A stretch of DNA of 64,000 nt from an uncultured Candidatus Saccharibacteria bacterium (GCA_937903325.1 CALCZR010000058.1:193034-257033), one strand, 5' to 3'. Counted from the stretch's first letter, positions 9,688-64,000 are shown. Notes: generated by a model from the letters alone, not told the origin. Translations and numbers: made by a program.

Positions 9688-9726
9688 TGTTTATGCTTAA
9701 ATATACTACTCACGGCTTTACTTTAG

Positions 9727-19657: not shown

Positions 19658-19681
19658 GACTTACTTACCAATGACAAAGAA

Positions 19682-22617: not shown

Positions 22618-23223
22618 TTAGCCCCGCAAGGCGAGCTGTCCTAAATCAGGATAAGGTACGTCAACTGGACGAGGAGCAGAAATACCTTCCCTAAATGGAA
22701 CACTTAACATACGTGATATCACATTAAGTGCTTCAACGTATCCATTCGTGTGAGGGCTCGAGGTGCTAAAAACTGACTCCCACTCACCGTCCTTGAAGCC
22801 ATTAATAGCAACATCTCCTGCTCGCCCCAGACCAAAGACCAAGGTATCGTACAGATTTGGTTCAACCTGTTCTGAAAACAAGTCACTGCTGGCATCGCCA
22901 ATCACCGGAAGTGCTAGAGGCAAGCGCTCAGTATGATGGCGAGACCTGTGGAGATTATCAATCGATACCACTATGCCATCTTGATCAGCCGCAACCCCAA
23001 GATCTAGCCTCATCTTACTGGTCCTACCTGCCGCAATAATTTCGTGATCAACGACAGGGCGACCCCCTGAGAGTACCGGTACACTTACGTCCCAAGCAAC
23101 TTGCGCGCCTTCGCCGTAGAAGTCTGTGAATGCTTTGAAATGCTCACCAGAAAAAATATTCCTAGAGAGTACATTACCTAGGGGTGCTCCACGCTGTGAT
23201 TCTGTAACGCTGTAAGCAGTCAT
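22618..23223 (-). CDS. hypothetical protein (201 aa)
   Basis: ORF only; lies between glyQS and recO. Confidence 0.45.
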   Translation of the reverse strand: MTAYSVTESQRGAPLGNVLSRNIFSGEHFKAFTDFYGEGAQVAWDVSVPVLSGGRPVVDHEIIAAGRTSKMRLDLGVAADQDGIVVSIDNLHRSRHHTERLPLALPVIGDASSDLFSEQVEPNLYDTLVFGLGRAGDVAINGFKDGEWESVFSTSSPHTNGYVEALNVISRMLSVPFREGISAPRPVDVPYPDLGQLALRG

Positions 23224-23262: not shown

Positions 23263-23952
23263 CTATACCCTCACGTTTTGGGCCAGCATGGTTTTGGTCA
23301 ACTGAACCAAGGGTTTAAGTAGGTCCTGCACCCCTTCTACCTTTGCCAGTTGCATCGGTGTCGTACGTTGCACAAGCCGCAATAGTTTCAAGTGTTTACC
23401 ACTAAATCTACCCGACGGATGCTCAGCAAACGTCATGTCTTCAAAACTAAAGTTATACAGCCCGGCTTCTGCCAATGCTTTCCCCTCTGTATCTGTTAAC
23501 AGGTTTGGAGAGTGCCCGCTAAAATCCAATAGTCGCACAGTCAGCCACAGCTGCACATATTCAGTTCCAACGTCTGCAATATTAAGCGCCGTAAGGCAGT
23601 TCTGGAGGATATCGAAGTACTCGGACTCAGGTGAATCTTCGGTAACCTTGTTAAGGAGCTTTAATACCTCGTAGGCATACATCGTCCGGTTTACATCTTT
23701 AATAATATTGCCGTAGTTGGTCTGCAAGCGCGAAGATATGAGCGTTCCCAGTTCACTCCGCCCCTCTATATAGGTAATATCGTTCACACTAAATAACTCA
23801 ATGCCGCCAGCCATGCGACTTTTAATCTTCCGCACTCCTTTGGCGAGTAAACGAATCTTCCCTTTATCTGGGGTGAGTACCGTCAGTATGCGGTCTGCTT
23901 CACCATAGTTAGTCCGGGAAAGCATAATGCCAGTCGTTACTTGTTGCTTCAT
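23263..23952 (-). CDS. recO: DNA repair protein RecO
   Basis: N-terminal OB-fold pattern GIMLSRTNYGEADRILTVLTPDKGKIRLLAKGVRK. Confidence 0.85.
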   Translation of the reverse strand: MKQQVTTGIMLSRTNYGEADRILTVLTPDKGKIRLLAKGVRKIKSRMAGGIELFSVNDITYIEGRSELGTLISSRLQTNYGNIIKDVNRTMYAYEVLKLLNKVTEDSPESEYFDILQNCLTALNIADVGTEYVQLWLTVRLLDFSGHSPNLLTDTEGKALAEAGLYNFSFEDMTFAEHPSGRFSGKHLKLLRLVQRTTPMQLAKVEGVQDLLKPLVQLTKTMLAQNVRV

Positions 23953-24332
23953 GTCGTCAATGCTGGTTGTAGTATTTTCTCAATAGCCTGTACAAGTTGT
24001 GCAAGTGTTGTACTTGGCTTATACAGATAGTCGGCGATATTTAGTCGAGCTAGTGCATCCTCTGCAAGCTGACCTTTACGCACATTCGTGTGTAGTATCA
24101 CTGGTATACTTTGCCACTCGCTGTAAGATCGCATTTCATACAGGAACTCCACACCGTTGTGTACAGCCAAGTTTAGTTCAAGAACAACGACGTCAACGGA
24201 TGCTTCATCCAACGCCATGACGGCACTCTCGGCTGTTTGTCGCCAGACTACTTTGTAGTCTTTACGTTCCAAATACGTTTGCTGGGTCTGTGCAAGTAGC
24301 TTGTCCGGTTCAATAAGCAGAATAGTCTTCAT
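23949..24332 (-). CDS. stand-alone receiver (REC) domain protein with Glu at the phospho-acceptor position
   Basis: REC pattern with conserved T (ILHTN) and K (YKPS), but VVVLELNL where DxxMP-type Asp is expected (E52) and IEPD instead of the DD pair. Confidence 0.7.
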   Translation of the reverse strand: MKTILLIEPDKLLAQTQQTYLERKDYKVVWRQTAESAVMALDEASVDVVVLELNLAVHNGVEFLYEMRSYSEWQSIPVILHTNVRKGQLAEDALARLNIADYLYKPSTTLAQLVQAIEKILQPALTT

Positions 24333-24335
24333 GCC

Positions 24336-25067
24336 CTATACCAGTACAAGTTGTTGGCTTGGCACAAAGGTTGCCGCCAAACCTGTTAGTTTCTGGTGGT
24401 GAGCTACACGCAGCCCTCCGGACATATTCTTGAGCAGTGCGTCGGCTACGAATATGCCAGCGCCAGTAGTAGATGTCACCTGGTTAAGTGGCGTAGCTGC
24501 TTGTCCGTATACCTGCCGTGCTCGACGAAACATATCGGTACTTAGTCCTTCTACGTCAGCGAATATACCAGCTACAATGCCATGCCTCGTACGATGTGCT
24601 GCAAGCTTCAAAACCGGCCGATGAGTGTGCGTCCGCTGACTTTGGGTTTCGAGAAAAACCGTTCCAAGATCTAGTAGTGCTGCCGACAGCCCTGCTGAAT
24701 GCGCCATGATCGGCTCATATCTCCCGGCGATATGGAGTTCAATGTCACAGAGATACTGTTGGGCTGCCTTCTCTAGTTTATGGGCCACTTCTGTCAGGCT
24801 GGCAGCTAAAGACACCGGCTCTAGATTCAGCTCTGTTCCCGCTCGCTGCAACCGAAGGCTCAAGAGGTAATGGTCGAGTAATTGAGTAGCGGCGTCTGCC
24901 GTAGACTCGATATTCCGTAGCAAAACTACATCTGGACTTTCTACCAGTAGTTCTGCCGTACGGGCGATGGTTGTAAAGGGTTGTTTGAGGCTTTCAGCTA
25001 GCACTGCAAATAGCCGTGCCTCCGGCAAATCTGCATAACTTTTTTGATCATTTTGCAAAGCTGTCAA
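24336..25067 (-). CDS. cytoplasmic histidine-kinase-like protein lacking the phospho-acceptor His
   Basis: H-box-like FAVLAESLKQPFTTI aligns to SHELRTPLTSI with Glu (E25) at the His position; degenerate N/G1 boxes, G2-like TTGAGIFV; no TM; TTG start. Confidence 0.55.
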   Translation of the reverse strand: MTALQNDQKSYADLPEARLFAVLAESLKQPFTTIARTAELLVESPDVVLLRNIESTADAATQLLDHYLLSLRLQRAGTELNLEPVSLAASLTEVAHKLEKAAQQYLCDIELHIAGRYEPIMAHSAGLSAALLDLGTVFLETQSQRTHTHRPVLKLAAHRTRHGIVAGIFADVEGLSTDMFRRARQVYGQAATPLNQVTSTTGAGIFVADALLKNMSGGLRVAHHQKLTGLAATFVPSQQLVLV

Positions 25068-25142
25068 AACCGTCCCCTCGCTTAGCTACTCGTAGTATAC
25101 ATGAGCCGAACCTGCTGTTCTGTTTTAGTTTTGACTACGAGG

Positions 25143-25811
25143 CTATGGAACAAACGTCAGATTAGGCAAGATAGTATCGTTAAAGTCAGGTACAAACTGT
25201 GAAGCTTCGGTCCAGATCTTCAATGTCTTATCTCGAAGCGGTAACAGAACCAACGCACCAGTCTTTCCGGTCATTATTTCACCTTCAGCCCGTACGCCGA
25301 TGGCACTTCGTACCTTAGCAGCTACAAACGGTGTGGTCCTGATCTTCCCTGACTTAACAAGTGCCTCAAGGCTTCGAGCATTCGTAGCGTATGTACTGTT
25401 AATAACCTGGAAGCGAAGTGCAACATTAGAGTTTGTTTGCAATCCTGGTACAAAAGCAGGGTTTAAATAGCCGTCTACCGGACTACTGCTACTGGATTTA
25501 CCTGATTCATCGATATACGCTGCCCAGGTTTTTGGGTAGCTAATCGTCAAGCTACCGTAAGCCGTTGGACCGGTATAGGTACGAAGTGGGTTTTTCTCTT
25601 TTTCAGCAAACTCAACTTCTTTTTTCTCGCTGAGTTTCTTTTCGGCATCTTCTACCGCTGCAGAAATCTTGGTCTCTACGTTATTCTTGTAATCCTGCCG
25701 AGATGAAAACATCGACATACCAAAGCCAAGTGCCGCAATAAGAAGCACGACCGTCAGCCCAAATGCAATAAGCCAGGAATCAACAACACCTTGCTGATTT
25801 AGTTTCTTCAT
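25143..25811 (-). CDS. hypothetical membrane-anchored protein
   Basis: single N-terminal TM (WLIAFGLTVVLLIAALGFGM), then a soluble domain. Confidence 0.5.
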   Translation of the reverse strand: MKKLNQQGVVDSWLIAFGLTVVLLIAALGFGMSMFSSRQDYKNNVETKISAAVEDAEKKLSEKKEVEFAEKEKNPLRTYTGPTAYGSLTISYPKTWAAYIDESGKSSSSSPVDGYLNPAFVPGLQTNSNVALRFQVINSTYATNARSLEALVKSGKIRTTPFVAAKVRSAIGVRAEGEIMTGKTGALVLLPLRDKTLKIWTEASQFVPDFNDTILPNLTFVP

Positions 25812-29746: not shown

Positions 29747-31162
29747 TTACCCAATAACAATGGCGGTCTTGTCATCGCGCTTGCGAGACATATCAACGAG
29801 CTGTACTGAAGCTGCCTCGGGACTTGGCGCCCAATGCAATACACTGCGGATTTCATCATCTCCAAGTATATCGCTACCGTAGTCACCAGTTATACCGTCA
29901 GAACAAAGCATTAGTCGATCATACGCATCAAGCTCAAATGTACCCACCTGCTTGACCTTCGCATTTCGGCCGCGATCACCACCAAGACAGTTATCTAGGT
30001 ATCGTCCCTCGCCTTCATCCTTGCTAATCATCTTTAAGCGACCAGATTGAGTATTGTAAACGTACAAGCGACTATCACCTACTGATGCCCATGTAGCATA
30101 CTCTTTTCCACCTTCATGATGAATCTTTACAACGACAGCCGTTGTAACACCATGGCCTGCCACTTCACTACCTTCACGTAGTGCGTGTCGTAGCGTATCT
30201 TCAATTTGGCGTGAGGGTGCCTTAGGGTCAAGTGACTTCATAATCTCACCAACCTTCTTAGCAGCACCTTGTGAAGCCTCTGAGGCACCACCGTGGCCAC
30301 CGGCACCATCAAATACTCCATATAATCCCTGTTCACGATCTACTAACGAAGCGTCTTCGCCCTTTAATGCCTTTTCAGCAAGTCCTTCACGGAAATATCG
30401 AGGAGGACGTTCTCCGATGTAGTTACCGTTTACATCAACATAGTCTTCACGACGACCGTGAGGCTTAGCAGTAGGCTGTACGTAGTCAGCGGTAACATCA
30501 TCATCAAATGCAGTTTCTGTACCTTTATTCCTTATAGCACCAGTATAAGTGCCGTTTAAAGAACCCTTGTCTAGTACTGCTACACTGTTAGCTTCTGGTA
30601 CAAATAAAATCTCTGCATGATTTCGAGAAACACTTGCATCCCTAGGAGTGACTATATCCTTAGACACATCTCGTCCGACCGTAAGAGGAATACCTGCCTT
30701 AAGGAAGTGCATTTGGGGCTTTCCGTAGGCATCACGAACGGCATCAACTTTTCCTTCTCCGTCGCGCTGCAATAAGACAGCTGCTAGTCCGCTTTCTCCT
30801 GCATTAAAAGCCATGCTTTCTTGCCCTGGTCCATGAGGACCTGCCCAGATAACACCACTAGGGGTCATGCCCTTAGCTTTCTGATAGGAATCACGATCTA
30901 CAATACCGATGGACGTATGCTTACCGACATTTATTTCGAGTACGAGATCGCCCCAAAGTCCGGTAGTTTCTGTAAATTCGTTGCGATCAACGATTGGCTC
31001 TAATTCATCAAGCTTAAATCCTGAACCGTCGCGCACTGGACTCCGCTCAATATTAGGGTTATTACTAGTAATCATGCTTTGCATATTTCGCACTTCAGCA
31101 GCAGATACTCCCCCTGTTAATGATGGGTCGAAGCCTGGATTGCCTGGATTGCCGTGTGCCAT
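29747..31162 (-). CDS. FHA-domain protein fused to a PP2C Ser/Thr phosphatase
   Basis: FHA: TVGRD...VSRNHAEILF...LDKGSLNGTY; PP2C: YGVFDGAGGHGG ... VGDSRLY ... LCSDGI. Confidence 0.75.
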   Translation of the reverse strand: MAHGNPGNPGFDPSLTGGVSAAEVRNMQSMITSNNPNIERSPVRDGSGFKLDELEPIVDRNEFTETTGLWGDLVLEINVGKHTSIGIVDRDSYQKAKGMTPSGVIWAGPHGPGQESMAFNAGESGLAAVLLQRDGEGKVDAVRDAYGKPQMHFLKAGIPLTVGRDVSKDIVTPRDASVSRNHAEILFVPEANSVAVLDKGSLNGTYTGAIRNKGTETAFDDDVTADYVQPTAKPHGRREDYVDVNGNYIGERPPRYFREGLAEKALKGEDASLVDREQGLYGVFDGAGGHGGASEASQGAAKKVGEIMKSLDPKAPSRQIEDTLRHALREGSEVAGHGVTTAVVVKIHHEGGKEYATWASVGDSRLYVYNTQSGRLKMISKDEGEGRYLDNCLGGDRGRNAKVKQVGTFELDAYDRLMLCSDGITGDYGSDILGDDEIRSVLHWAPSPEAASVQLVDMSRKRDDKTAIVIG

Positions 31163-31272: not shown

Positions 31273-31713
31273 TTAAACAGTCAGGTGGTGCTTAATGCGC
31301 TCTACTACATCAGCGATTACAACCTGTGATTTCACGAGGTAGTCATCTGCTCCAAGTTTCTGGGCTCGTTCCTTGTCACTGTCCTGGCTGAGAGCCGTCA
31401 ACATGACAACCTTTACTTTGGCAGTTTCTGGGGTGTTACGGAGGATGTCGAGTACGTCAAAGCCACTTACTTTGGGCATCATGACATCAAGGACGATAAG
31501 GCTTGGCTTGTACTCAAGAGCACCAGCAAGGGCGTCCTCACCATTCGGTACACGCTTTACATCGAAGCCTTCGGCTTGAAGTCGCGTTTGATACACACTG
31601 GCTAGCGCATCGTCGTCCTCAACGAGAAGAATTTTATACTGTTTTGTAGGCGCTGCATTAGTAGTTGGTTCATCCATAGTGCTTATACTAATATATCTAG
31701 CGCTTGGCTGCAA
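31273..31713 (-). CDS. stand-alone CheY-like response regulator (canonical)
   Basis: LLVEDDD, LIVLDVMMP, VVMLTA, DYLVKS all present. Confidence 0.8.
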   Translation of the reverse strand: MQPSARYISISTMDEPTTNAAPTKQYKILLVEDDDALASVYQTRLQAEGFDVKRVPNGEDALAGALEYKPSLIVLDVMMPKVSGFDVLDILRNTPETAKVKVVMLTALSQDSDKERAQKLGADDYLVKSQVVIADVVERIKHHLTV

Positions 31714-37561: not shown

Positions 37562-37987
37562 CTAAGCTTCCATCGAATCGAAACTTTCAATTCCGGGGAG
37601 GAGCATTCTGAGATAGTCTGGCGGCACCAGATCGCCTTCGCGCGCCTGGAACGTCAATGAGAAGTAACCACCGTGTCGATTTATTGACCAGTCGTCCCAC
37701 CACTTTGCAGCTTCAGATCGATCGAATAACTTTAATGCCTTTATCGCATCAATCGTTCGTACCTCTATAGCATCAGGGACAACATATAGCCCTATTGGGC
37801 CAACCTCATTAACATCTGCAGTCATGGTTGTGATGGGTGCCTCTTGAGAACGATCATAGCGAAGCGGAAGTGGAACACCGATCCACTGGTCTTTAATCTC
37901 GTCCGGAGCAGCACCAAAAGGCTGATTCCGGATTACAAACCAGCTCCTTATCTCCCCGCCTGGAGCAAGCGTATCTCTCCCAGCCAT
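37562..37987 (-). CDS. hypothetical protein (141 aa)
   Basis: ORF only; lies between prfB and ftsE. Confidence 0.45.
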   Translation of the reverse strand: MAGRDTLAPGGEIRSWFVIRNQPFGAAPDEIKDQWIGVPLPLRYDRSQEAPITTMTADVNEVGPIGLYVVPDAIEVRTIDAIKALKLFDRSEAAKWWDDWSINRHGGYFSLTFQAREGDLVPPDYLRMLLPGIESFDSMEA

Positions 37988-45636: not shown

Positions 45637-46320
45637 CTATTGTAGCAGTTTGGTAATTGCCGTGAGCGCCGCAGTTTCCGCCCGAAGCGTGAAGTCATGC
45701 AGGTTGAGGTGTTTAATCTCTAAGTCCTTAAACAGTTGTTTTTCGGTATCACTCCAGCCACCCTCGGGACCAATGAGCACACCGAGATCTTCGCCAGCTA
45801 ACTCACCTTCACTACTATCCTGTTCGCAGATATACAGAGTTGCTTTGTCCTGGTACTGCTCAATGGCTTTTGCCACATGCATAGTATCTCGCACATTGGG
45901 GATGTCGCTCCGGCCGCATTGTTCGGCTGCTTCAATAACAATCTTTCGAGCACGTTCAATGTTAAAGCCTGTCTTTTCAGAGCGATCTGCTAGCAGTGGA
46001 ATAAAGTGACTAACTCCTAATTCGGTGGCCTTTTGTAATACCCAGTCATTCTTGTCTTTCTTAAGCAAAGACCAGAACAAATAGATATTTTTACGCGGCA
46101 GTTGGCGCTTGTAGTCTGTAACCAATTCTAAATGTGCTTCGTCAGAACTCAGCTCTGTAATCTTGTAGAGACGGTCGTGTTCTAGACCATCAAACAATAC
46201 GATTTGCTGTCCTGCACGGAAACGTAGAACCTTGTTCCATTGGTGTAGCAATACTTCTTCCTTAAACCAGAAGTCATGTTCAAGTTTTAGTTCGGGTACG
46301 TAAAAGCGATGTATCTTCAT
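45637..46320 (-). CDS. rsmE: 16S rRNA (uracil1498-N3)-methyltransferase RsmE
   Basis: MKIHRFYVP N-terminus, C-terminal IGPEGGW SPOUT motif. Confidence 0.8.
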   Translation of the reverse strand: MKIHRFYVPELKLEHDFWFKEEVLLHQWNKVLRFRAGQQIVLFDGLEHDRLYKITELSSDEAHLELVTDYKRQLPRKNIYLFWSLLKKDKNDWVLQKATELGVSHFIPLLADRSEKTGFNIERARKIVIEAAEQCGRSDIPNVRDTMHVAKAIEQYQDKATLYICEQDSSEGELAGEDLGVLIGPEGGWSDTEKQLFKDLEIKHLNLHDFTLRAETAALTAITKLLQ

Positions 46321-47579
46321 TTCTTTTCTAGTATACAGAGTGTTTCAATGTGTGGCGTCCGTGGGAAGAAGTTGTAACAAACAAAGTCACGAATCGTGTA
46401 GGTATCCTGAAGTAGCGCTACATCACGAGCCTGGGTTGCTGGGTTGCATGATAAATAGCAGATTTGCGCCGGGCCTGCTTCAAGAATTCGCTCTATCACG
46501 TCTTTATGTAGACCGCTTCGTGGCGGATCAACAATAAGACAGCTATCAGGCGTTATGTACTCCAATGCTTGCTCAGTACTAGCTTCAATGACTTCAATGT
46601 CTTTATTGCCAGCATTCTTTTTGGCCATAGCCACGTTAGCTGAATCTAACTCCACCAAGGCCTTCGTGTCGCCAATTGGTATACCAATACTGCCGACGCC
46701 GGCGTACATATCTACTTTGTTTTTAGTGCCGTGACTTACCTGATCTATTTTCTGTAGTGCCAATTCAAAAACCGGTAAGTTAACTTGGAAGAAGCCAATA
46801 ACGTCATATTGCATCAAGGTTCCAAGCAGTGTGTCATCAAGTTTCGTATCACCAACTTCATACAGTAATTTGGTCGCCACTGACGCCGGACTTTTAGGGT
46901 TTGAGTGGTAAACTTTGATGCCACTAATGCCTTCTGGTAGTTTGAACTTTGAGAAGGTTTCAGGTTTCACAAATAGTGCAGCAACTACCTTCCCGGCCTG
47001 ATTACACCTTAGGATTACAGATTTTAGATCTCCAGCCCGAACACTATTTTTGTTCAATTCGACTAAAAGCGCCTGTGCTGCATCATTAATGGCTGGCAGC
47101 GCCAACGCACTACCCTGCACTATTTGCTTACGATGCGTGCCGCGATTGTAGAACGCATAGTGCAGTCCTTCGTCGTCTCCGTAGAACGAAAACTCAATCT
47201 TATTACGATACCCAAACTCATTGCCATCACTCACTACCTCAAAATCTGGCAATGTCACGCCTTCCCGCTTAAACGTCTCCTGCACAATGTCGTGCATGGC
47301 AATATGCTCTGCGTTAAGGGTCATATTCTGCCATGGAGATGTTGCAAGATAGATCGATTCCTTTGGCTCGATGCGCTCAGCAGACGCCTCTAGAATCTCT
47401 TCTGCAATACCTTCAACAAAGTCTTTCTTTCGCTTCGTAAGGAGCGCCCTAACTTGCTCACTTGGCAACGCATTCCATATAAAGGCCTTGCGTCCATCTG
47501 CTAGCGTGCCGAATCCTTGGCCACCGTGAACCAATTTCTCAATAGCTAGTTCTTCATAAATTGGTGTTTTTTGCTTCAT
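46317..47579 (-). CDS. RNA (uracil-5)-methyltransferase, RlmD/TrmA family
   Basis: VDPPRSGL and YLSCNPATQARD motifs. Confidence 0.8.
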   Translation of the reverse strand: MKQKTPIYEELAIEKLVHGGQGFGTLADGRKAFIWNALPSEQVRALLTKRKKDFVEGIAEEILEASAERIEPKESIYLATSPWQNMTLNAEHIAMHDIVQETFKREGVTLPDFEVVSDGNEFGYRNKIEFSFYGDDEGLHYAFYNRGTHRKQIVQGSALALPAINDAAQALLVELNKNSVRAGDLKSVILRCNQAGKVVAALFVKPETFSKFKLPEGISGIKVYHSNPKSPASVATKLLYEVGDTKLDDTLLGTLMQYDVIGFFQVNLPVFELALQKIDQVSHGTKNKVDMYAGVGSIGIPIGDTKALVELDSANVAMAKKNAGNKDIEVIEASTEQALEYITPDSCLIVDPPRSGLHKDVIERILEAGPAQICYLSCNPATQARDVALLQDTYTIRDFVCYNFFPRTPHIETLCILEKK

Positions 47580-48046
47580 TAGATCTCAATCTCGGTTATA
47601 GAAGCCTGACTAGGAATAAAATGTTCAGGGTCTGATTGGCCCAGTGCGGTTAATAGTGCTGCGATAACAAGACCATGCGTTACCCAGATACGTTCTTCTG
47701 GTAGATTCCGTAGAATGGCTTGAGCTGCTTCTATAGCTTCTTTGGGAAGCTTACCTTGCTCTACACCTTCTTGCGTTCTCTTTGGATCACCAGTATTTAT
47801 CTCATCTATTATTTTATTGACGTTTAGATCCGTAAAACCTGCCAAACGCGCTGTTTCTTGTGTCCGAATAAAGTCAGAAACAGCTACAGGCTGACTGAAG
47901 TCTATACCTCGTTTTACCAACTCTTGCTTGAGTTTGGCTGCCTGCTTCCTTCCCGCTTCATTGAGAGGTGCGCCATGCTTACCCTGCAAGGCCCGTGTAA
48001 GTCGATTGGCGTCAGTTGCAGCGTGTCGAATAAGAAGATATTTCAT
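47579..48046 (-). CDS. histidine phosphatase (phosphoglycerate-mutase-like) family protein
   Basis: LLIRHAATDAN (RHG-type catalytic His) and a downstream THG; 155 aa. Confidence 0.6.
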   Translation of the reverse strand: MKYLLIRHAATDANRLTRALQGKHGAPLNEAGRKQAAKLKQELVKRGIDFSQPVAVSDFIRTQETARLAGFTDLNVNKIIDEINTGDPKRTQEGVEQGKLPKEAIEAAQAILRNLPEERIWVTHGLVIAALLTALGQSDPEHFIPSQASITEIEI

Positions 48047-48052
48047 GTTCGA

Positions 48053-48874
48053 CTACGGACGGAGGGTACCGAAGAATACCTGCCATGCAAGCGCTGTTTT
48101 AGCTACCAAGCTTAAGATCATATAGACACGTTCACCGTATAGGTAGTTAGCCCATTGCCCCTTCTTGGCGTACTGCAGATACATATTAACTGCAAAGCTA
48201 GAGAAGAATACGAACATACTTCCGTAGATAAAGTATACGAACGTTGGAATGCCGCCAGAACCATATGCGTTAGCGCCAATTACGTAGATAGCGAACACGA
48301 TCCATGGCACTATACCAGCAACACAGCCAAGGTTGTAGGTAATCCAGTTGGTCTTCTTTGCTCCTTGGTTTGTAAGTTCCATAACCAACCCCATGCTATT
48401 CATGAGAAGATCTAAGATAAAGATCATAAGAAGTGCTGAAAAGTCGTACACGCCGCTTAAGAGTGCAATAGCCACCATCATGACACTGGCGCTGAGGCCA
48501 TATTCAATCCAACGAGCTTTGTTAATCCCCTTCTTGAGATCTGCTTCGTAGGTTTTACGATACTTTGTTGCAATTACAGCGTGAGCAATCGCTGACATAA
48601 AGAAGAAGGTCGCTACGAGATAGGCCAAGTTGACGTTGAAAATGTTATGTATAGCAGGAGCTAGTACCGGCTTCTCGGCGATCTTAGATGCTGCAGTGTC
48701 CTGTGTAAGGAACGTTGTATGTACGGGCCATGAATTAGCTTTACTGAGTACCAGTACAAGGATACCTTGCACTGCGTGCAGAACTGCAAGCCACTTGTTC
48801 CATGAGTTAAGTGAGTTTGGTGTAATGGTGAGCGGTGTTTTTTTGCGTAATTTCATGTCTGCACTATACCACAT
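48053..48874 (-). CDS. heliorhodopsin
   Basis: 7 TM; RWIEYGLSASVMMV, GCVAGIVPWIVFAIYVI, NYLYGERVYMILSLVAKTALAWQVFFGTLRP match heliorhodopsin 48C12 as recalled, including the Schiff-base Lys and counterion Glu; likely true start is ATG 48856. Confidence 0.85.
   Translation of the reverse strand: MWYSADMKLRKKTPLTITPNSLNSWNKWLAVLHAVQGILVLVLSKANSWPVHTTFLTQDTAASKIAEKPVLAPAIHNIFNVNLAYLVATFFFMSAIAHAVIATKYRKTYEADLKKGINKARWIEYGLSASVMMVAIALLSGVYDFSALLMIFILDLLMNSMGLVMELTNQGAKKTNWITYNLGCVAGIVPWIVFAIYVIGANAYGSGGIPTFVYFIYGSMFVFFSSFAVNMYLQYAKKGQWANYLYGERVYMILSLVAKTALAWQVFFGTLRP
48863..48870 (-). promoter_or_regulatory. GGTATAGT -10-like element, 6 nt upstream of the internal ATG 48856 of the heliorhodopsin ORF
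   Basis: plus strand ACTATACC. Confidence 0.4.
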
Positions 48875-48913
48875 AATAGCCGTCCCGAAGATGTTATACT
48901 GGGCGTAAGCACT

Positions 48914-49582
48914 ATGAAACCAAAACTAGCTATCCCCCAACGCAACTCCCTGAACTATAACGCCACCAAGAAGAACAAGCGCTCACTAAAATCGAAGCTT
49001 GTGCTCATAATCTTAGGACTAATCGCTCTCGGTAGTTTTACCTTACTGGCACTCCCTTACCTGCCTCGGCTCCGCTATCTCATATTCAAACCAAAGATAG
49101 ATGCCACGTCATACCAACAAGCTGCTCAGTCGACAAAGGAAGGTAAAGAAGCCCCTATCGACAACGAAGCTCAAAAGCCCGGTAACCGCCTAGTCCTACC
49201 CGGTATTGGTGTCGACACCCAGATCATAGACGGCCGGAACATTTACGTTATCGGCAAGAACCAGGGAGTCTGGCGCGAGACTGGGAACATCGACCCCACA
49301 CAAGAAGGTAACATTGTCATTGCGGGACATCGCTTCCTTTACACCGCTACGAATGGTGGCTGGTTCTACAACCTCCCGGAGCTCCAGAACGGCCAGAAAA
49401 TCTATATTCGCTGGGACAGTAAAGTATATGAATATGAGATCTACAACTCTAAAACAGTTCTACCAACCCAAGTAGATATACGAGATACCGATCCAGATGT
49501 TCCCAAGAAACTCACGCTGTATACTTGCTACCCTCTCGGAAGTACTGCTAAGCGATTCGTTATTGAAGCCAAGCAACTTTAG
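48914..49582 (+). CDS. sortase-family transpeptidase
   Basis: N-terminal TM anchor, IAGHR (His), TLYTCYP (TLxTC Cys), C-terminal R. Confidence 0.8.
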   Translation: MKPKLAIPQRNSLNYNATKKNKRSLKSKLVLIILGLIALGSFTLLALPYLPRLRYLIFKPKIDATSYQQAAQSTKEGKEAPIDNEAQKPGNRLVLPGIGVDTQIIDGRNIYVIGKNQGVWRETGNIDPTQEGNIVIAGHRFLYTATNGGWFYNLPELQNGQKIYIRWDSKVYEYEIYNSKTVLPTQVDIRDTDPDVPKKLTLYTCYPLGSTAKRFVIEAKQL

Positions 49583-49620: not shown

Positions 49621-50448
49621 GTGCCTATGTCAGTACCAAACTACGAACACTTATTCAATCCTCTGCTCGAGGCGCTTAGGAAACTTGGCGGTTCTGCCAC
49701 AATCGAAGAACTCGAATCTGAAGTGTCTATAATTCTTGCTCTGAGCGAAAAGGACATCAACGAACTTCATAGAGGGAGTCGAACCAAACTTTCTTATCGC
49801 CTAGCCTGGGCCCGGACCTATCTCAAACGTTATGGATTACTCGAAAACTCAGCTCGTGGTGTTTGGTCATTGACTGACAAAGGAGAGAAAACCAGTAAGG
49901 TCGACATAAAAGTAGTACAGCAGACCGTCAGGTCTCTGGATAAGAAACAAACCGGGACCGCATCTTTCACTGAAGATAGTCTTGTAGACGAATGGGAAGA
50001 AAGACTTCTTGCAGAGCTGCAAAGCGTATCTCCTGCAGGTTTTGAACGCCTCTGCCAAAGACTTCTGCGTGAAGCCGGGTTTATAGATGTCGACGTTACG
50101 GGTCGCCCCGGAGATGGTGGCATAGATGGCATTGGGACTATACGTATCAATCTCATTAGTTTTAGAGTGATCTTTCAATGCAAACGATACAAAGGAAGCA
50201 TTTCCTCTCAACAAATACGCGAATTTAAAGGTACTATGTCCGGGCGAGCTGAGCGAGGCCTATTTATAACAACGAGCACATTTACCAAGGACGCCCGAGG
50301 TGAAGCCAATAGAGACGGGTCTACCCCCATCGATCTGATCGACGGCAAACGACTCGTAGAACTCATGAAGGAATATCAGCTAGGCGTTACCGTAAAAACC
50401 ACGGAACAAATAGATATTCAGCCCGAGTGGTTCAAAAGCTTCCACTAA
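49621..50448 (+). CDS. mrr: Mrr-type (type IV, modification-dependent) restriction endonuclease
   Basis: N-terminal winged-helix Mrr_N-like region; catalytic core GDGGIDGIG ... FQCKRY ... LFITTSTFT. Confidence 0.8.
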   Translation: MPMSVPNYEHLFNPLLEALRKLGGSATIEELESEVSIILALSEKDINELHRGSRTKLSYRLAWARTYLKRYGLLENSARGVWSLTDKGEKTSKVDIKVVQQTVRSLDKKQTGTASFTEDSLVDEWEERLLAELQSVSPAGFERLCQRLLREAGFIDVDVTGRPGDGGIDGIGTIRINLISFRVIFQCKRYKGSISSQQIREFKGTMSGRAERGLFITTSTFTKDARGEANRDGSTPIDLIDGKRLVELMKEYQLGVTVKTTEQIDIQPEWFKSFH

Positions 50449-50975
50449 GCTAGTAGCTTCTGGAACTTCTGGCGTAGTTTAGCGAGCTTCGGATTAATAA
50501 CCACCTGGCAATACCCGGCTTCAGGATGTTTCTGGAAATAGTTCTGGTGTTCATCTTCTGCTGGGTAAAACACCTCAAGCTGCTTCACTTCAGTTACTAT
50601 TGGATCTTCCCAAAGCTTGGCCACTTCTCTGAGAGACGTATTTATAACCGCCTCTTGCATAGCATCAGTGTAGTAGATAGCCGAGCGATACTGACTTCCT
50701 TCGTCAGCTCCCTGTCGATTTAATGACGTAGGGTCGTGCATAGCCCAGAAAATGTCTAGTATATCTTCCAGGCTGATCTTGGAAGAATCAAAAGTAACTT
50801 TCACTACTTCGGCATGACCAGTATCGCCGCCAGCTACCGCGTAGTAGTGCGGATCTTTTGTATTGCCACCGGCATACCCAGATATGACTTCAGTAACACC
50901 GTCTACGAGACGGTAGCCGGCATCTAAGCACCAGAAACAACCGCCTCCGAGTACAATGCTCTCTTGTTTTGCCAT
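50445..50975 (-). CDS. msrA: peptide methionine (S)-S-oxide reductase MsrA
   Basis: GGGCFWC active site, GHAEVV. Confidence 0.9.
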   Translation of the reverse strand: MAKQESIVLGGGCFWCLDAGYRLVDGVTEVISGYAGGNTKDPHYYAVAGGDTGHAEVVKVTFDSSKISLEDILDIFWAMHDPTSLNRQGADEGSQYRSAIYYTDAMQEAVINTSLREVAKLWEDPIVTEVKQLEVFYPAEDEHQNYFQKHPEAGYCQVVINPKLAKLRQKFQKLLA

Positions 50976-51292: not shown

Positions 51293-52669
51293 TTATTCTG
51301 TTCTTAGTGCTTCGATCGGATCAAGCTTAGCTGCTTTACGAGCCGGTAAGTACCCTGCCACCATAGCGACCAAGATAAGTACTGCAATCAGGGCAATAAT
51401 CTGTGCTGGTCGGAAGATAAGCAAGCTATTACCTGCGCCTAGATCAAGTTTCTTAGTTACCCATGGATTGAGCGGGATTCCAACGAGTAATGACGCAACG
51501 GATCCAATAAGACCGCCGAGGAAGCCAATCCAGCCTGCCTCGAGCATGAACAGCCGACGTAAGTCACGCTTGCGCATGCCAAGGGCCTTCATAAGGCCGA
51601 TTTCTCGAATACGTTCTAGTACACTGATGTATTGAGTATTCACGATCCCAAAGATCGAAGCGATTAGCGTTATCAAGCCGAATACCCCCACTAACGCTTG
51701 GAGAATATTTACTATCTGAGTAATAGACTGCTGTATATCCTTACTACTCTGGGTGAAGTAGTCCTTGGACTTCAAGTCATTCTGCGCAGTCGTAATCTTG
51801 GCCGCATCTTTACCGTCCTTCACTCGCACAAACACATAGCTGTACTTACCGTAATTAGAGGTGCCTTCCGTGGTGTAGTCGTAGATATTTTTAGCATCCG
51901 CTGTAGACACGAGTACCGGCAAAGTACCAAAGTTAATACTAGTTGCAGCCTTCTTAGTGACAGCAACGATCTTAAAGCTTCGTTGCTCAGATGCTGGCTG
52001 CAAGGTCTTTAGGTCTCGGCCCTCACGAATAGCTTGAATTACTTCCTCACCAGTTGAGTCAACAAAAGGTTTCTGGACATCGATCTTAATAGTTTTGCCA
52101 AGCGCATCGTTGGCACTCTTAAAGCCAAGAGCCTTAATGTAACCATCCGGCAAAGTTGCTTGGCCAGCAGCGATGTCACCTTCTGTCGGTAACTTACCTG
52201 CCTCAACCTCTGGCTTCTGTGCAGGGTTATATGCAGTTGCGCTCAACGTAAAGCGCTTCTGACCATCACGGGTAACGTAGCGCGCATTGAGGATGTAGTT
52301 AGCCCGTACCTGCTCAATATATGGTAGCTTTTCTAGTTCCTGAATATCTTCAGTGGTAACTTGTTTAATCTGCAGACTTGAGCCGTCTCCGCCCACCGTG
52401 AGCGAGGATACTGATTCATCATATTCCTTAGGTTCAGTACTTGGAGCACCATTATTGGCAATCTCTTTATCACGACCCACAATAAGCTCTGCAGGATCGA
52501 AGTTACTAGCTACTAATCGGTCGGTATAGGCTCGGATGCCGTTACCGGCAGCTAGCGTAGTTGTTAGGGTAAAACCACCAACTGCAATAGCCAGTGAAGT
52601 GAGAATTGTACGGAGCTTTGCATTACGCAAACTTCGGCCACTTCGTCGAACAGTGTCAGTAATGCGCAT
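51293..52669 (-). CDS. ABC transporter permease, FtsX/MacB-like
   Basis: TM1, large periplasmic-type domain, then 3 C-terminal TM segments with the FtsX-fold motif (REIGLMKALG). Confidence 0.8.
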   Translation of the reverse strand: MRITDTVRRSGRSLRNAKLRTILTSLAIAVGGFTLTTTLAAGNGIRAYTDRLVASNFDPAELIVGRDKEIANNGAPSTEPKEYDESVSSLTVGGDGSSLQIKQVTTEDIQELEKLPYIEQVRANYILNARYVTRDGQKRFTLSATAYNPAQKPEVEAGKLPTEGDIAAGQATLPDGYIKALGFKSANDALGKTIKIDVQKPFVDSTGEEVIQAIREGRDLKTLQPASEQRSFKIVAVTKKAATSINFGTLPVLVSTADAKNIYDYTTEGTSNYGKYSYVFVRVKDGKDAAKITTAQNDLKSKDYFTQSSKDIQQSITQIVNILQALVGVFGLITLIASIFGIVNTQYISVLERIREIGLMKALGMRKRDLRRLFMLEAGWIGFLGGLIGSVASLLVGIPLNPWVTKKLDLGAGNSLLIFRPAQIIALIAVLILVAMVAGYLPARKAAKLDPIEALRTE

Positions 52670-53397
52670 TATTTTTTCCCCTTCTTGGCTACTTTGGTCT
52701 TAGCACTCTTTGCCTTAACAGCGCTTCCAGTAATACTCTCGATGCGGCCGTCTTTGAGACGTACTTGCATCTGGCAACGAGCGGCAAGATCGTTATCGTG
52801 CGTCACAATCACCAAGGTACTACCAATACTCTTATTGATATTAAACAGTAGATCAATGATCTTATCTCCCGTAGCACTGTCTAGGTTACCTGTTGGTTCG
52901 TCTGCAAAGATAAGTTTTGGCTTGTTCACAATGGCACGAGCAATAGCTAGACGCTGCTTCTGGCCACCAGATAAGTTACGGGCCTTAGAGTTAACTTTCT
53001 CGGCTAGATCTACCGCCTCAAGTGCCTCAAGCACTCGTTGCTTGCGATCCCGTCCGCGTACTTCAGCAATCTCAAGTGGTAACATAACGTTCTGGTAACA
53101 CGTTTGGTTACCCTCTACGAAGAAAGCCTGGAAGATAAAGCTCATAGACTCTGCTCTAAAAGCATCCATCTGCTTTGCCTTCATTTGGCTTAGTACTGTT
53201 CCACTGACGCTAATATGCCCGTCACTTGGGGTGTCCAGCCCACTCATAATATGCATGAGTGTCGATTTACCGGAGCCACTCTTACCAATAATGGCAACAG
53301 TAGCACCTTCCTTAATATTCAAACTAACATCGTTCAGTGCCGTAAATGCACTATCCTTCTTCCCATACGTCTTAGTGACGTTAACAACCTCTATCAT
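52669..53397 (-). CDS. ABC transporter ATP-binding protein (MacB/LolD-like)
   Basis: GKSGSGKST, LSGGQKQR, LIFADEPTG; start moved to ATG 53397 (MIEVVNVTK) because the 29-codon extension overlaps the lysK 3' end. Confidence 0.9.
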   Translation of the reverse strand: MIEVVNVTKTYGKKDSAFTALNDVSLNIKEGATVAIIGKSGSGKSTLMHIMSGLDTPSDGHISVSGTVLSQMKAKQMDAFRAESMSFIFQAFFVEGNQTCYQNVMLPLEIAEVRGRDRKQRVLEALEAVDLAEKVNSKARNLSGGQKQRLAIARAIVNKPKLIFADEPTGNLDSATGDKIIDLLFNINKSIGSTLVIVTHDNDLAARCQMQVRLKDGRIESITGSAVKAKSAKTKVAKKGKK

Positions 53398-53403
53398 GCT
53401 ACT

Positions 53404-53409
53404 AGTATA
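53404..53409 (-). promoter_or_regulatory. TATACT element, 6 nt upstream of ATG 53397
   Basis: plus strand AGTATA. Confidence 0.35.
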
Positions 53410-53423
53410 GCAAGACGGGTAAA

Positions 53424-54959
53424 CTATTTCTGGAGTTTTAGTCTTGCAATAAGCCAATCCCGAGGAAGGATACTCAAGAACCAACCAGCACGCGGACCAG
53501 AGTCTTGGCCAATCAGGGCCTGGTATAGAACCGTGAATAGTTCTTTGGGCGCCAACTCAGCTTTATCTTTGAATTCGTAGATAGCCTGATGGAACCACGT
53601 GCCGTCAGCTTCTGCTGGGGCATCACTAATCTTATCTGCTAAGTCCTGTAAATACTGCTTTTGGGGACCGGTAAGTTGTAGCGATGAAAGATCTTCACGA
53701 AGCGCAAACTTAACTTCATCAGGAGCCCAAGTATCGAGCCACTTATCTATAAACTGCAGCTCATGGAGAATTACTTCCTTGTCAGCCTCAACCTGGTCAG
53801 CATGTTCAGTCCGCTTCATAATCTCAATAGTCTTTGCAGGGTCACGAAGTGCTGCTTGGTAACTCGCAACGAGATGCGAGAATGGCACCCTGCTCACTAC
53901 TACGCGGTCTCCAAGAGGACCTCGACAAAGATCTAGTAGCTGTTCTTCTTGAGGTGTTTTATCTTTCTTTGCCAGTAGTTCAGCGAACTCATCAAAGAGA
54001 CGTACAACTCCTACTCCTTGATCAAAGTAAAGACGCTTGCTTGGTGGGAAAGATAGGACAAAGTAGCGAACTAACTCAGCAGGAAGCACCTGACTAACTT
54101 CTTTAGCACTAATTCCGGTACCCTTACTGGCGCTCATTTTCTTGGTATCACCCGCTCGGTTAATAAAGTCGTATGGCACCGGAATAGGAGCTGGGGTTTC
54201 AAAGATATCCTTCATAATTGCTACACCGGTGTCATAGGAGCCGCCCGCACTGGCATGGTCCCGTCCAAAAGGCTCCACATGGACGTTAAGCTGCCACCAG
54301 CGAGCTGGCCAATCAAGACGCCAATCTAGCTTTATCTCGCCCTTGTCGTATCCTGTAGTCTTCTCTTCACCATCTGCATTCTGGTACGTAAGCTGCTTGC
54401 TTTTATTGTCGATGGAGATAAATCGACGATTCTTTAACCGTCCAGACTCCATAATCTGGATAGGTGACCAATGTTCATCAAGCTGACGACCGGCCACAGT
54501 CTCAAGTGTCTTGCGTGCTAATGGAACATTAGCTAGAACCTTTTCAATAGAAGGCACGAAGAAACCAGCACGGTACTTCTTGTGACTTCGTTCAACACCC
54601 ATGTCTATGCCCAGTTCACCTGCCACACCTATAAAGTCATCGACAAAGTAGTCCGCGAAGTTTCGGTCGCTGCCATCGGGAGCCGGGATATCACAAAGAG
54701 GCATGCCAAGATACTGCTCAAACTCAGCTGGAATATTCACAGGAATCTTACGAAGTCCATCGAGATCATCCACGAACTGGATATGACGCGCCTCTCGGCC
54801 ACGTCGCCTAAGCTCTAGCATGATAGCATCTGAGGTAATAATCTCGCGCAGGTGACCAAAGTGATACGTTCCCGAAGGAGATGCACCGGACTCAATTAAA
54901 ATCTCACCGGTTGGATACCGGTCGATAATCTGGTCAACAAGTTGGTTTAGCCATTGCAT
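53424..54959 (-). CDS. lysK: lysine--tRNA ligase, class I
   Basis: class I signatures SPSGTYHFGH (HIGH-type) and KMSASKG (KMSKS-type); 511 aa; no class II motifs. Confidence 0.85.
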   Translation of the reverse strand: MQWLNQLVDQIIDRYPTGEILIESGASPSGTYHFGHLREIITSDAIMLELRRRGREARHIQFVDDLDGLRKIPVNIPAEFEQYLGMPLCDIPAPDGSDRNFADYFVDDFIGVAGELGIDMGVERSHKKYRAGFFVPSIEKVLANVPLARKTLETVAGRQLDEHWSPIQIMESGRLKNRRFISIDNKSKQLTYQNADGEEKTTGYDKGEIKLDWRLDWPARWWQLNVHVEPFGRDHASAGGSYDTGVAIMKDIFETPAPIPVPYDFINRAGDTKKMSASKGTGISAKEVSQVLPAELVRYFVLSFPPSKRLYFDQGVGVVRLFDEFAELLAKKDKTPQEEQLLDLCRGPLGDRVVVSRVPFSHLVASYQAALRDPAKTIEIMKRTEHADQVEADKEVILHELQFIDKWLDTWAPDEVKFALREDLSSLQLTGPQKQYLQDLADKISDAPAEADGTWFHQAIYEFKDKAELAPKELFTVLYQALIGQDSGPRAGWFLSILPRDWLIARLKLQK

Positions 54960-60752: not shown

Positions 60753-61550
60753 ATGAGGGCCGCATCACACGACGGCTACTTATATTATGTATGGAGAAAT
60801 ATTAACGTGCCGAGTCCCCGAGAGTTAGACAGAATCACTATTGATTTAGGTGGAGCAAAAGTCCTCGATATTGATACTTTCCTGCAGCGCAAAGCTGAAA
60901 CGGGAGCTATTACCGAGGAACAATTAGCTGCTCGACAAGCCCGCTTAAAGGCTGCCCGCCTCATGACCAAGGCTGGCTTGCTTGATGATACTCCACGTAT
61001 TTATGGGGCTACTGCGGACGAAGAGCTCATGATCTTCCCCCATTTCAAGCCGCGAACTATAAAACCCATGTCCGTCGCTCAGCAGACCGCCCATGATCTC
61101 AGCATCCTGGAAGGTACTTTCGACAAGCGTAACAGTGACATACAACGCACACTAAGAGGCAAGCTCCTTACCCGCATTGATGCCGATGAAATCCCTGTTA
61201 ACTACTGGATCGGTGTTCACAACTTATTTGGAAATGGTCGCCCTCCGCTCGTTCCAGAGTTTTTCTCTGAAATGTACGAAAAGTTTGCAGCCGACTTTAA
61301 TATGACTCCTATGGAGTCACTCCAAAAACTCCAGGTTGGATTTTTTACTGTCTCTGCATGCTTCGGCGCTCGCATTATGGATGAACAAGGACGCCCGCGC
61401 TACATGGAAGCCGTCCAACTAGCAGAAGAGGCTTGGCCACCGAAGATCGACATGATCAAAGCCACTTTCTCAGAAGAATTCTTATCTCAAAAAGGCAATA
61501 GCGGTAGCGAGCAATCTCTACAGTCGAATGTTCCTATAATTGTTGGGTAA
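60753..61550 (+). CDS. hypothetical protein (265 aa)
   Basis: ORF only; one of the few plus-strand genes. Confidence 0.45.
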   Translation: MRAASHDGYLYYVWRNINVPSPRELDRITIDLGGAKVLDIDTFLQRKAETGAITEEQLAARQARLKAARLMTKAGLLDDTPRIYGATADEELMIFPHFKPRTIKPMSVAQQTAHDLSILEGTFDKRNSDIQRTLRGKLLTRIDADEIPVNYWIGVHNLFGNGRPPLVPEFFSEMYEKFAADFNMTPMESLQKLQVGFFTVSACFGARIMDEQGRPRYMEAVQLAEEAWPPKIDMIKATFSEEFLSQKGNSGSEQSLQSNVPIIVG

Positions 61551-63053: not shown

Positions 63054-63875
63054 TTACATTGCCTGCTGCAACAGATGAAGGAGAGCTTCAGCCTCTTCGA
63101 AGCTAACAAGTCCAACTCCCTCGGATCGATCATTCATAATTAGATCGATTTCAGCGCCAGCCACGAGCTCCTCTATGGCATGCGGCTCTTTTGCATTTGG
63201 CTCATATGATTCTGAAGCCATATACCTCTGATGTTCGGCGAGCTCTTCCTTAATTATGTCCTCAAAAGTTGGCTCATCATTAGCAACGTGCTCAAGATCA
63301 ACAATCCCCCTTCGAATACTCATCTCTTCCATTTGCCTTTGGAACAGTTGCCCTCCAAGCTCATTCGATTGTAAGTTAGTAACTACTCTCGTAAGTAGCC
63401 CTTCTGAGCTTCTATGCAAAAGTATACTTCCGTCTTTTCCTTCCCAAATCTGATACTCCAAGTCTTGCCGCAACGAACGAGGAGCGACATGCGACTCAAC
63501 ACTATGGACTAAACTTACCTCTCCTCTGAGGGTATGGTTTTCACCTGGTACAAGCTCTACATCATAGGCCGAACAATAAATAGCGGTTCTCCCTGCACTT
63601 CGAGCAAAACGCGTAAGCCACATGTTATTCCGATAAAATCTTCGTATGGTTTCGGGTGACATGTCTACAAAACTACCCAGTATCTCGTCTCTGCCTGTTG
63701 AGTCAAAGCTCCCCAATGCGTAGACATCATAAAAGGAGTTATGAAGAACATCAGGCAGACTCTCTGTTGGCGTAACTGGCAACTCAAGATTAAGATCACC
63801 GTCAATAGTGCGAAGCTGCCCAATCAAAGCTTCTGCCTGCTCAGGAGTCGATAATTCTAGGCCCGGTGATACCAT
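63054..63875 (-). CDS. hypothetical protein
   Basis: ORF track runs to 63980, but that extension covers the rpmE promoter; ATG 63875 (MVSPGLEL) has a TATAAT (63886..63891) 10 nt upstream. Confidence 0.4.
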   Translation of the reverse strand: MVSPGLELSTPEQAEALIGQLRTIDGDLNLELPVTPTESLPDVLHNSFYDVYALGSFDSTGRDEILGSFVDMSPETIRRFYRNNMWLTRFARSAGRTAIYCSAYDVELVPGENHTLRGEVSLVHSVESHVAPRSLRQDLEYQIWEGKDGSILLHRSSEGLLTRVVTNLQSNELGGQLFQRQMEEMSIRRGIVDLEHVANDEPTFEDIIKEELAEHQRYMASESYEPNAKEPHAIEELVAGAEIDLIMNDRSEGVGLVSFEEAEALLHLLQQAM

Positions 63876-63921
63876 AATTAATACAATTATAAAACTTTTG
63901 TATCTTAAATGCAAATAGTAG

Positions 63922-63950
63922 TTGACCATGTGACCCCTGATGTGTATAAT
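63922..63950 (+). promoter_or_regulatory. sigma70-like promoter (TTGACC - 17 nt - TATAAT) for rpmE
   Basis: read directly; 12 nt from the -10 to ATG 63963. Confidence 0.55.
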
Positions 63951-63962
63951 TAGGCCTTGATT

Positions 63963-64000
63963 ATGAAAAAAGATATCCACCCCAAGAACTACCGCCTTGT
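63963..64000 (+). CDS. rpmE: 50S ribosomal protein L31, N-terminal fragment (runs off the window)
   Basis: translation MKKDIHPKNYRL matches the L31 N-terminus (MKKxIHP). Confidence 0.55.
   Translation, partial: MKKDIHPKNYRL

Follow-up and report, generated by a model that had tools for sequence, protein, structure and literature searches.

The 64,000-nucleotide stretch analysed here, referred to below as the window, comes from an uncultured Candidatus Saccharibacteria bacterium (GCA_937903325.1 CALCZR010000058.1:193034-257033). On its minus strand, at positions 48053..48874, we identified an intact and genuine heliorhodopsin gene of a Saccharibacteria (TM7) bacterium; heliorhodopsins are light receptors that bind retinal and sit inverted in the membrane. 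By analogy with characterised members of the family, the encoded protein is very probably functional and would act as a non-pumping photoreceptor or regulator using scavenged retinal. Comparison of related loci further provided good support for a leaderless mRNA beginning at a conserved ATG at position 48856, inside the reading frame reported by gene callers.

Identification of the heliorhodopsin gene

The open reading frame (ORF) and the coding sequence counted from the conserved start are as follows.

48053..48874, minus strand: heliorhodopsin ORF, 273 amino acids, ATG to TAG
48053..48856, minus strand: heliorhodopsin coding sequence from the conserved start, 267 amino acids plus TAG stop; relatives begin at the equivalent Met, with MK[LF][KR]K

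A first-pass annotation of the window had taken this ORF for a heliorhodopsin with seven transmembrane helices (TM1 to TM7), and profile searches, PDB matches and the predicted fold all agreed with that assignment. In the Pfam search that had been proposed as a check, PF18761 spanned the ORF over its full length (profile positions 1-242 of 242) with an E value of 8.2e-88 and 294.3 bits against a cutoff of 26.7. The NCBIfam equivalog NF038020 ('heliorhodopsin HeR') matched over positions 1-244 of 244 with 296.5 bits against a cutoff of 100. When the Pfam search of the ORF was extended up to E = 1, no second family appeared besides PF18761, neither PF01036 (Bac_rhodopsin) nor a better-scoring non-rhodopsin profile. 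The top sequence matches among PDB chains were TaHeR (6is6, E 1.3e-63) and 48C12 (6su3, E 1.4e-49), and identity in a three-way alignment reached 50% with TaHeR and 43% with 48C12. Given these PF18761, NF038020 and PDB scores, the match lies far beyond chance. The strings quoted from the ORF in the first-pass annotation (RWIEYGLSASVMMV, GCVAGIVPWIVFAIYVI, NYLYGERVYMILSLVAKTALAWQVFFGTLRP, LAVLHAVQ and SAIAHAV) were all found in it, and the 48C12 strings set against them there agree with the PDB chain sequence. The likeness to 48C12 claimed there holds in that the two proteins are collinear, but the nearest solved relative is TaHeR.

The hallmarks of type-1 rhodopsins, namely a PF01036 match, a DxxxK motif in TM7 and an N-terminus outside the cell, were lacking: the TM7 motif is SLVAK and the charge bias is opposite. 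Every heliorhodopsin feature that could be tested at the level of sequence and structure was found. A pseudogene or relic was ruled out by the full-length ORF, the intact key residues and the presence of the identical protein in several independent assemblies, on contigs of two ENA assemblies, a Logan assembly and an NCBI record (a 425-kb contig).

Database relatives of the protein numbered 4097, those with 64-82% identity being abundant and the closest named ones being called 'heliorhodopsin HeR' from Candidatus Saccharibacteria or Saccharimonadales. The related loci compared below are the best 80 of 129 relative-encoding stretches in species-representative genomes; almost all are Saccharibacteria metagenome-assembled genomes, from lakes, activated sludge, bogs and similar places.

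Conservation of the retinal pocket

Residue numbers refer to the 273-residue ORF unless stated (numbers from the conserved start are lower by 6), and conservation was counted over 46 Saccharibacteria homologs.

48098..48100, minus strand: codon AAA of the Schiff-base lysine K259 (K253 from the conserved start), in TM7 (SLVAK); corresponds to 48C12 K241 and TaHeR K238
48503..48505, minus strand: codon GAA of the counterion glutamate E124 (E118), in TM3 (RWIEY); corresponds to 48C12 E107 and TaHeR E108
48776..48778, minus strand: codon of His33 (H27), in TM1; corresponds to H23 of 48C12 and TaHeR; invariant (46/46)
48581..48583, minus strand: codon of His98 (H92), in TM2; corresponds to 48C12 H80 and TaHeR H82; invariant (46/46)
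48200..48198, minus strand: codon of S225, at a fenestration-side position

The counterion and Schiff-base residues picked out at first pass therefore stand in register with those of both solved structures, and the two histidines noted as conserved align with H23 and H80 of 48C12, the His pair of the proton-accepting cluster. K259 was invariant (46/46) and falls within the model helix 238-264, that is, inside TM7 and not outside it. The E124 position was occupied by Glu in 45 of the 46 homologs and by Asp in the remaining one. The alignment also matched 48C12 S76 with S94, N101 with N118, E149 with E166, and S237 with S255, the first residue of the SxxxK motif (S255-L-V-A-K259). All the residues mapped in this way (H33, S94, H98, N118, E124, E166, S255 and K259) were invariant or nearly so. 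The residues named as framing the lateral fenestration in a preprint (bioRxiv 10.1101/2025.11.27.691015) were likewise retained: Y180 (48C12 F162, TaHeR Y164), C184, G187, F224 and A228.

Predicted fold and membrane orientation

An AlphaFold2 model was built from the 46-sequence alignment and compared with the PDB using Foldseek. The model had a mean predicted local distance difference test score (pLDDT) of 91.4 and comprised seven long helices (residues 13-37, 77-96, 113-133, 139-162, 172-198, 205-230 and 238-264), with a beta hairpin in the first (AB) loop (strands 43-52 and 65-75). The top Foldseek matches were heliorhodopsins only: TaHeR 6is6 gave template modelling (TM) scores of 0.87/0.93 with a root-mean-square deviation of 1.7 Å, and 48C12 6su4 gave 0.85/0.89. 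Type-1 rhodopsin structures scored far lower (at most 0.63, with 10-16% identity).

With the helix boundaries of the model, we counted 13 Lys and Arg residues in the N-terminal tail and the loops of that side (the even-numbered ones), versus 4 on the opposite side. By the positive-inside rule, this excess predicts a cytoplasmic N-terminus and an outside C-terminus, the inverted orientation that had been expected from the family assignment.

A conserved start codon and a candidate leaderless promoter

Four short features surround the beginning of the gene.

48857..48874, minus strand: upstream in-frame codons MWYSAD, six codons before the conserved start, included by gene callers
48856..48854, minus strand: second in-frame ATG, the conserved start
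48863..48871, minus strand: extended -10 element TGGTATAGT, its last base 6 nt before ATG 48856
48892..48900, plus strand: divergent extended -10 element TGTTATACT, facing the sortase gene, back to back with the candidate heliorhodopsin promoter

From an element at 48863..48870, the first-pass annotation had suggested that ATG 48856 is the real start and that the transcript is leaderless. The string GGTATAGT is indeed read on the minus strand at 48870..48863, as part of the extended -10 element, and the related loci lend the suggestion good support. Among relatives of 68-81% identity, an ATG is mostly missing (loci L004-L009) from the frame ahead of the Met that corresponds to M7, and in some related loci a stop codon closes the frame a few codons upstream of this Met. 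The residues WYSAD or CYSAG that precede the conserved Met correspond to a translated DNA element, TGnTATAGT, the YSA codons being the TATAGT box. A TAnnnT sequence lies 6-8 nt before the candidate ATG in 57 of the 78 usable related loci, and 41 of those 57 combine the extended -10 TG with the exact 6-nt spacing. Where the locus offers a single candidate ATG, the element was found in 42 of 60 cases (binomial probability about 4e-40 against the background frequency in the window). Thirteen of the loci that are free of the element carry a Shine-Dalgarno-like sequence instead; in loci L056, L063 and L065, such a motif stands before the heliorhodopsin gene in place of the leaderless promoter. Close relatives carry the reverse complement of TGTTATACT (AGTATAnCA) ahead of their heliorhodopsin genes.

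The usual distance from the -10 element of sigma-70 promoters to the transcription start is 7 nt. With 6 nt between position 48863 and the ATG, transcription would therefore start on the A of ATG 48856. We thus infer, with good support from the comparison of loci, a leaderless mRNA that begins at ATG 48856 and is driven by an extended -10 promoter, the segment 48857..48874 being probably untranslated promoter DNA.

Alternatively, a conventional leadered mRNA would be translated from ATG 48874 into the 273-residue protein. Two observations speak against the leaderless start: the first start codon met in the ORF is ATG 48874, and a -35/-10 consensus scan of 47400..49100 reported no promoter at the heliorhodopsin start. 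The latter result is explained by the lack of a good -35 at the site, so that the case for the promoter rests on the extended -10 element and its conservation. The upstream start also agrees with the database copies of the identical protein, all of which are called as 273 amino acids, and with locus L011, which has an ATG at the equivalent place. However, L011 is the only locus to keep that ATG, a start codon being missing there in L005-L009; no Shine-Dalgarno-like sequence was seen ahead of 48874; and the six extra codons coincide with a promoter element that keeps its distance from the second ATG in the 57 loci mentioned above. We consider translation from ATG 48874 improbable and retain ATG 48856 as the start.

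The element is not confined to the heliorhodopsin gene. A TAnnnT box lies 6-9 nt before the start in 16 of the 68 genes of the window, where about 4.7 would be expected (P about 1e-5), often with a preceding TG (TGnTAtAAT-like). These genes start at the following positions.

1591, 6744, 10857, 12192, 16033, 22596, 23223 and 25811, minus strand
28180, 31713, 37533, 39078, 44806, 46320 and 54959, minus strand, plus 48856

They showed no Shine-Dalgarno-like motif; genes inside operons tend to have one. On sequence grounds, this suggests that many mRNAs of this Saccharibacteria genome are leaderless. A search of the literature library used here for leaderless transcription in Saccharibacteria returned nothing relevant.

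Proposed function

We favour, as highly probable, a functional heliorhodopsin that would work as a non-pumping photoreceptor or regulator with retinal taken from elsewhere. By analogy with 48C12 and TaHeR, all-trans retinal would enter through the fenestration and form a protonated Schiff base with K259, for which E124 would be the counterion. Green light would isomerise the retinal to 13-cis; the Schiff-base proton would then pass to a Glu/His group and stay within the protein, without net ion transport. A long-lived intermediate may alter the Lys/Arg-rich cytoplasmic loops and so modulate a partner protein, from which the role of a slow-cycling photosensor or regulator would follow. Sensory or regulatory roles have been put forward for heliorhodopsins (PMC8612252, PMC11109279). 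The retinal is probably scavenged from the host or the surroundings, because Saccharibacteria that bear type-1 rhodopsins lack blh and must get retinal from their hosts (PMC9296517) and because no carotenoid genes were seen in the window. Heliorhodopsin takes up retinal fast (PMC9296517).

No genes for retinal or carotenoid synthesis (blh, crt) and no type-1 rhodopsin gene were detected by Pfam within the 64-kb window, the part of the genome covered here; the sole isoprenoid enzyme encoded there is undecaprenyl-diphosphate synthase. Some observations count against this assignment. Asn207 of 48C12 (N204 of TaHeR), described as conserved beside the fenestration, is replaced by Ser225, at a position that varies among the 46 homologs (N 21, S 18, M 3, A 2, G 1, T 1). 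Finally, clustering of the ORFs within four genes on either side of heliorhodopsin in 81 loci revealed no conserved partner gene, the top neighbour family being present in 21 of the 81.

Gene neighbourhood

The genes around heliorhodopsin in the window are listed below.

45637..46320, minus strand: RsmE-like RNA methyltransferase (PF04452), with a start/stop overlap with the U5-methyltransferase gene
46317..47579, minus strand: U5 RNA methyltransferase (PF05958)
47579..48046, minus strand: His_Phos_1 mini-phosphatase (PF00300), 155 amino acids, 6 nt downstream of the heliorhodopsin stop
48914..49582, plus strand: sortase (PF04203)
49621..50448, plus strand: Mrr-type restriction endonuclease (Mrr_N and Mrr_cat), between sortase and MsrA
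50445..50975: methionine sulfoxide reductase MsrA
51293..52669: permease of a MacB-type ABC (ATP-binding cassette) pair
52669..53484: ATPase of the same pair

Downstream of heliorhodopsin the genes are separated by 6-nt gaps or overlap by 1-4 nt, and no terminator-like site was found between heliorhodopsin and these genes in a scan of 47400..49100. Because of this spacing and the lack of a terminator-like site, co-transcription is likely, and the heliorhodopsin gene would head a tight operon with the His_Phos_1 gene and the two RNA methyltransferase genes.

RNA methyltransferase genes follow heliorhodopsin in 17-21 related loci, and in 12 loci a sortase gene stands at position -1, oriented the other way. 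Where heliorhodopsin identity is about 60% or more, the gene order is ABC ATPase, MacB-type permease, NTP_transf_9, MsrA, sortase (on the opposite strand) and heliorhodopsin, followed by U5 RNA methyltransferase, RsmE, a PD-(D/E)XK nuclease, SerRS and HPF. All frequent neighbour families belong to this one housekeeping synteny block, and none of these frequent families recurs at more distant heliorhodopsin loci.

Two genes of the window depart from the block. Both the His_Phos_1 gene and the Mrr gene are absent from their positions in all related loci; we therefore regard them as insertions specific to the lineage of the window, and the Mrr gene looks like a recent one. The His_Phos_1 mini-protein covers only the first 90 or so positions of the 194-position Pfam profile and belongs to a mini-family of about 40 database proteins, the named ones coming from Saccharimonadales. 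A homolog lies directly upstream of heliorhodopsin in locus L039 (5499..5960), and four other members adjoin dUTPase, MazG, NUDIX, HAD or isochorismatase genes. As a conserved partner His_Phos_1 was rejected: it is missing from the other 79 related loci, and these four members stand in unrelated nucleotide-metabolism or housekeeping contexts.

Histidine kinases have been reported in heliorhodopsin neighbourhoods of phyla including Patescibacteria (PMC8612252). None was seen in the window, which carries, 17-25 kb from heliorhodopsin and all on the minus strand, the following signalling genes.

23949..24332, minus strand: stand-alone response-regulator receiver protein
31273..31713, minus strand: stand-alone response-regulator receiver protein
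29747..31162, minus strand: FHA and PP2C phosphatase

Alternative functions

Instead of a pure sensor, the protein could be a two-antenna light harvester whose lateral fenestration holds an exogenous xanthophyll, an arrangement recently proposed for most heliorhodopsins (preprint bioRxiv 10.1101/2025.11.27.691015). The retained residues Y180, C184, G187, F224 and A228, and the smaller Ser225 at the conserved-Asn position, variable in the clade, would suit such a site. However, the same fenestration residues also serve retinal uptake, and the proposal is built on structure, sequence statistics and docking, with no carotenoid binding demonstrated for any heliorhodopsin in the sections consulted. 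Light harvesting moreover needs an energy-converting activity, and none is known for 48C12 or TaHeR. We regard a light-harvesting role as unlikely.

A role in sensing light for defence against photo-oxidative stress, tied to MsrA, is about equally doubtful. Eighteen loci, with heliorhodopsins sharing 58-81% identity with the ORF protein, carry MsrA on the same strand at a distance of 1-3 genes upstream, and MsrA is the immediate neighbour in L018, L022, L025, L026 and L030; an oxidative-stress role has been proposed for heliorhodopsins generally and for those of candidate phyla radiation (CPR) bacteria (PMC8612252, PMC9166423). The same loci nevertheless keep unrelated neighbours equally well (NTP_transf_9, RsmE, PDDEXK, SerRS), so that synteny explains the adjacency, and MsrA is not near the more distant heliorhodopsin genes. 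Heliorhodopsin also appears to have its own promoter and, in the clade of the window, a divergent sortase gene lies between it and MsrA.

Still less probable is a specific regulatory action of heliorhodopsin on the MacB-type ABC transporter nearby. OcHeR and the ABC exporter that it modulates in the light, a published functional pair (PMC11109279), would be the parallel. ABC/MacB homologs do occur near heliorhodopsin in varied arrangements: 3-5 genes upstream in the clade of the window, directly downstream on the same strand in L056, L063 and L065 (about +800 to +1600 from the heliorhodopsin start), and directly upstream on the same strand in L066 (-2162 to -1455). All of these loci, however, share one ancestral block (LysRS ... 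SerRS-HPF), and the proximity may have been inherited with that block and then rearranged locally. In the window the ABC pair is set apart from heliorhodopsin by a strand switch and four to five genes, about 50 of the 81 loci have no nearby ABC gene, and the published partner is a heterodimeric MDR exporter and not a MacB-type one.

From the weak hints of the neighbourhood, together with the finding of no retinal-synthesis genes, one may derive a further idea, to which we give a similarly low probability. In epibiotic Saccharibacteria, heliorhodopsin would become light-active only after capturing retinal (perhaps also a xanthophyll) from the host and would serve as a 'host contact plus light' sensor. 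Its expression from the leaderless promoter would be constitutive, and it would act on envelope or stress functions of the block (MacB-type ABC, MsrA, sortase).

Ion transport is the least credible of these possibilities: the ORF shares its fold and chromophore site with transporting heliorhodopsins, but its nearest solved relatives TaHeR (50%) and 48C12 (43%) are not known to transport ions. Proton transport has been reported for some heliorhodopsins (PMC9448325); the ORF, however, keeps the fenestration/carotenoid-site motif, which the viral transporting subfamily lacks according to the preprint (10.1101/2025.11.27.691015). We retain the reading of a non-pumping photoreceptor or regulator.

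Other features of the window

The window is gene-dense, with about 47% G+C, and encodes cell-division, translation and envelope functions. About 64 of its 68 genes lie on the minus strand, and GC skew stays below zero along its whole length (cumulative -1.2). A single replichore with a strong gene-strand bias seems to contain the entire window. Scans of the window for tRNA genes and Rfam families gave no hits. Two adjoining genes may form a defence-related pair in a reduced genome.

15449..16033, minus strand: NYN-domain gene
16052..17065, minus strand: KwaB-like-domain gene (Kiwa anti-phage component, E 6e-10)

Fourteen ORFs of 107-376 amino acids had no Pfam match at E <= 0.001 and are typical CPR 'dark' proteins. 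Regions with such Pfam-less ORFs are given here.

1609..2550, 9151..10857, 13799..14961, 19019..20005, 22618..23223
24336..25811, 37562..37987, 60753..61550, 63054..63980

Significance and prior knowledge

The genomes of Saccharibacteria are tiny, with roughly 700-1000 genes, and lack a retinal pathway. The physiological role of heliorhodopsins is open, and a gene retained in many lineages with such small genomes presumably pays its way, which makes Saccharibacteria a reasonable system in which to look for partners. The first-pass annotation had called a copy kept in a streamlined genome notable. The genome is indeed that of a Saccharibacteria, but the notability was overstated, as 98 inverted rhodopsins, including 80 from Saccharimonadia, had been found in a survey of 1326 CPR genomes (Chiriac et al. 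2022, PMC9166423), and NCBI already names the relatives. SLVAK is among the commonest TM7 motifs of CPR heliorhodopsins in the same survey (PMC9166423). Heliorhodopsins have further been described as restricted to monoderms (Bulzu et al. 2021; PMC8612252); in the present case the nearest relatives are from Candidatus Saccharibacteria/Patescibacteria and a sortase gene adjoins, which would fit that distribution. The family, its occurrence in Saccharimonadia and the TM7 motif are thus already published and the protein is already in public databases. Since heliorhodopsins are documented in Saccharimonadia, the find is correct but ordinary. What is added here is the corrected start codon, the comparative case for a conserved leaderless promoter and the lack of a conserved operon partner, together with the synteny block and the His_Phos_1 and Mrr insertions specific to this lineage.

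Comparison with known systems

The closest characterised protein is TaHeR, from Thermoplasmatales archaeon SG8-52-1 (PDB 6IS6, 7U55). The two share H23, S78, H82, E108, S234 and K238 (TaHeR numbering), the fenestration residues Y164, C168, G171, F203 and A207, and the same C-terminal ...WQVF.GTLRP. They differ in their hosts, archaeal for TaHeR and bacterial (Saccharibacteria) for the ORF, and the ORF has six more residues in the AB loop and five more in the TM5-TM6 loop, with Ser in place of Asn204 and Asp155 in place of Thr139. The ORF protein, unlike TaHeR, is known from sequence alone.

48C12, from an actinobacterial fosmid (PDB 6SU3, 6UH3), is collinear with the ORF, residues 20-273 of the latter aligning with residues 10-255. 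H23, S76, H80, N101, E107, E149, S237 and K241 (48C12 numbering) are shared, whereas Q213 is replaced in the ORF by Met (as in TaHeR), N207 by Ser, F162 by Tyr and N138 by Asp. The heliorhodopsins of Saccharimonadia and other CPR bacteria (PMC9166423) come from the same class of organisms, with the SLVAK motif in TM7 and a predicted inverted orientation, and no essential difference from them was found.

The SacR type-1 proton pumps of Saccharibacteria (Jaffe et al. 2022, PMC9296517) occur in the same phylum and likewise depend on external retinal, which they take up quickly through an opening in the protein, as heliorhodopsin does. They nevertheless belong to another family with the opposite orientation and carry DxxxK where the ORF has SxxxK; by analogy, pumping would not be expected of the ORF protein.

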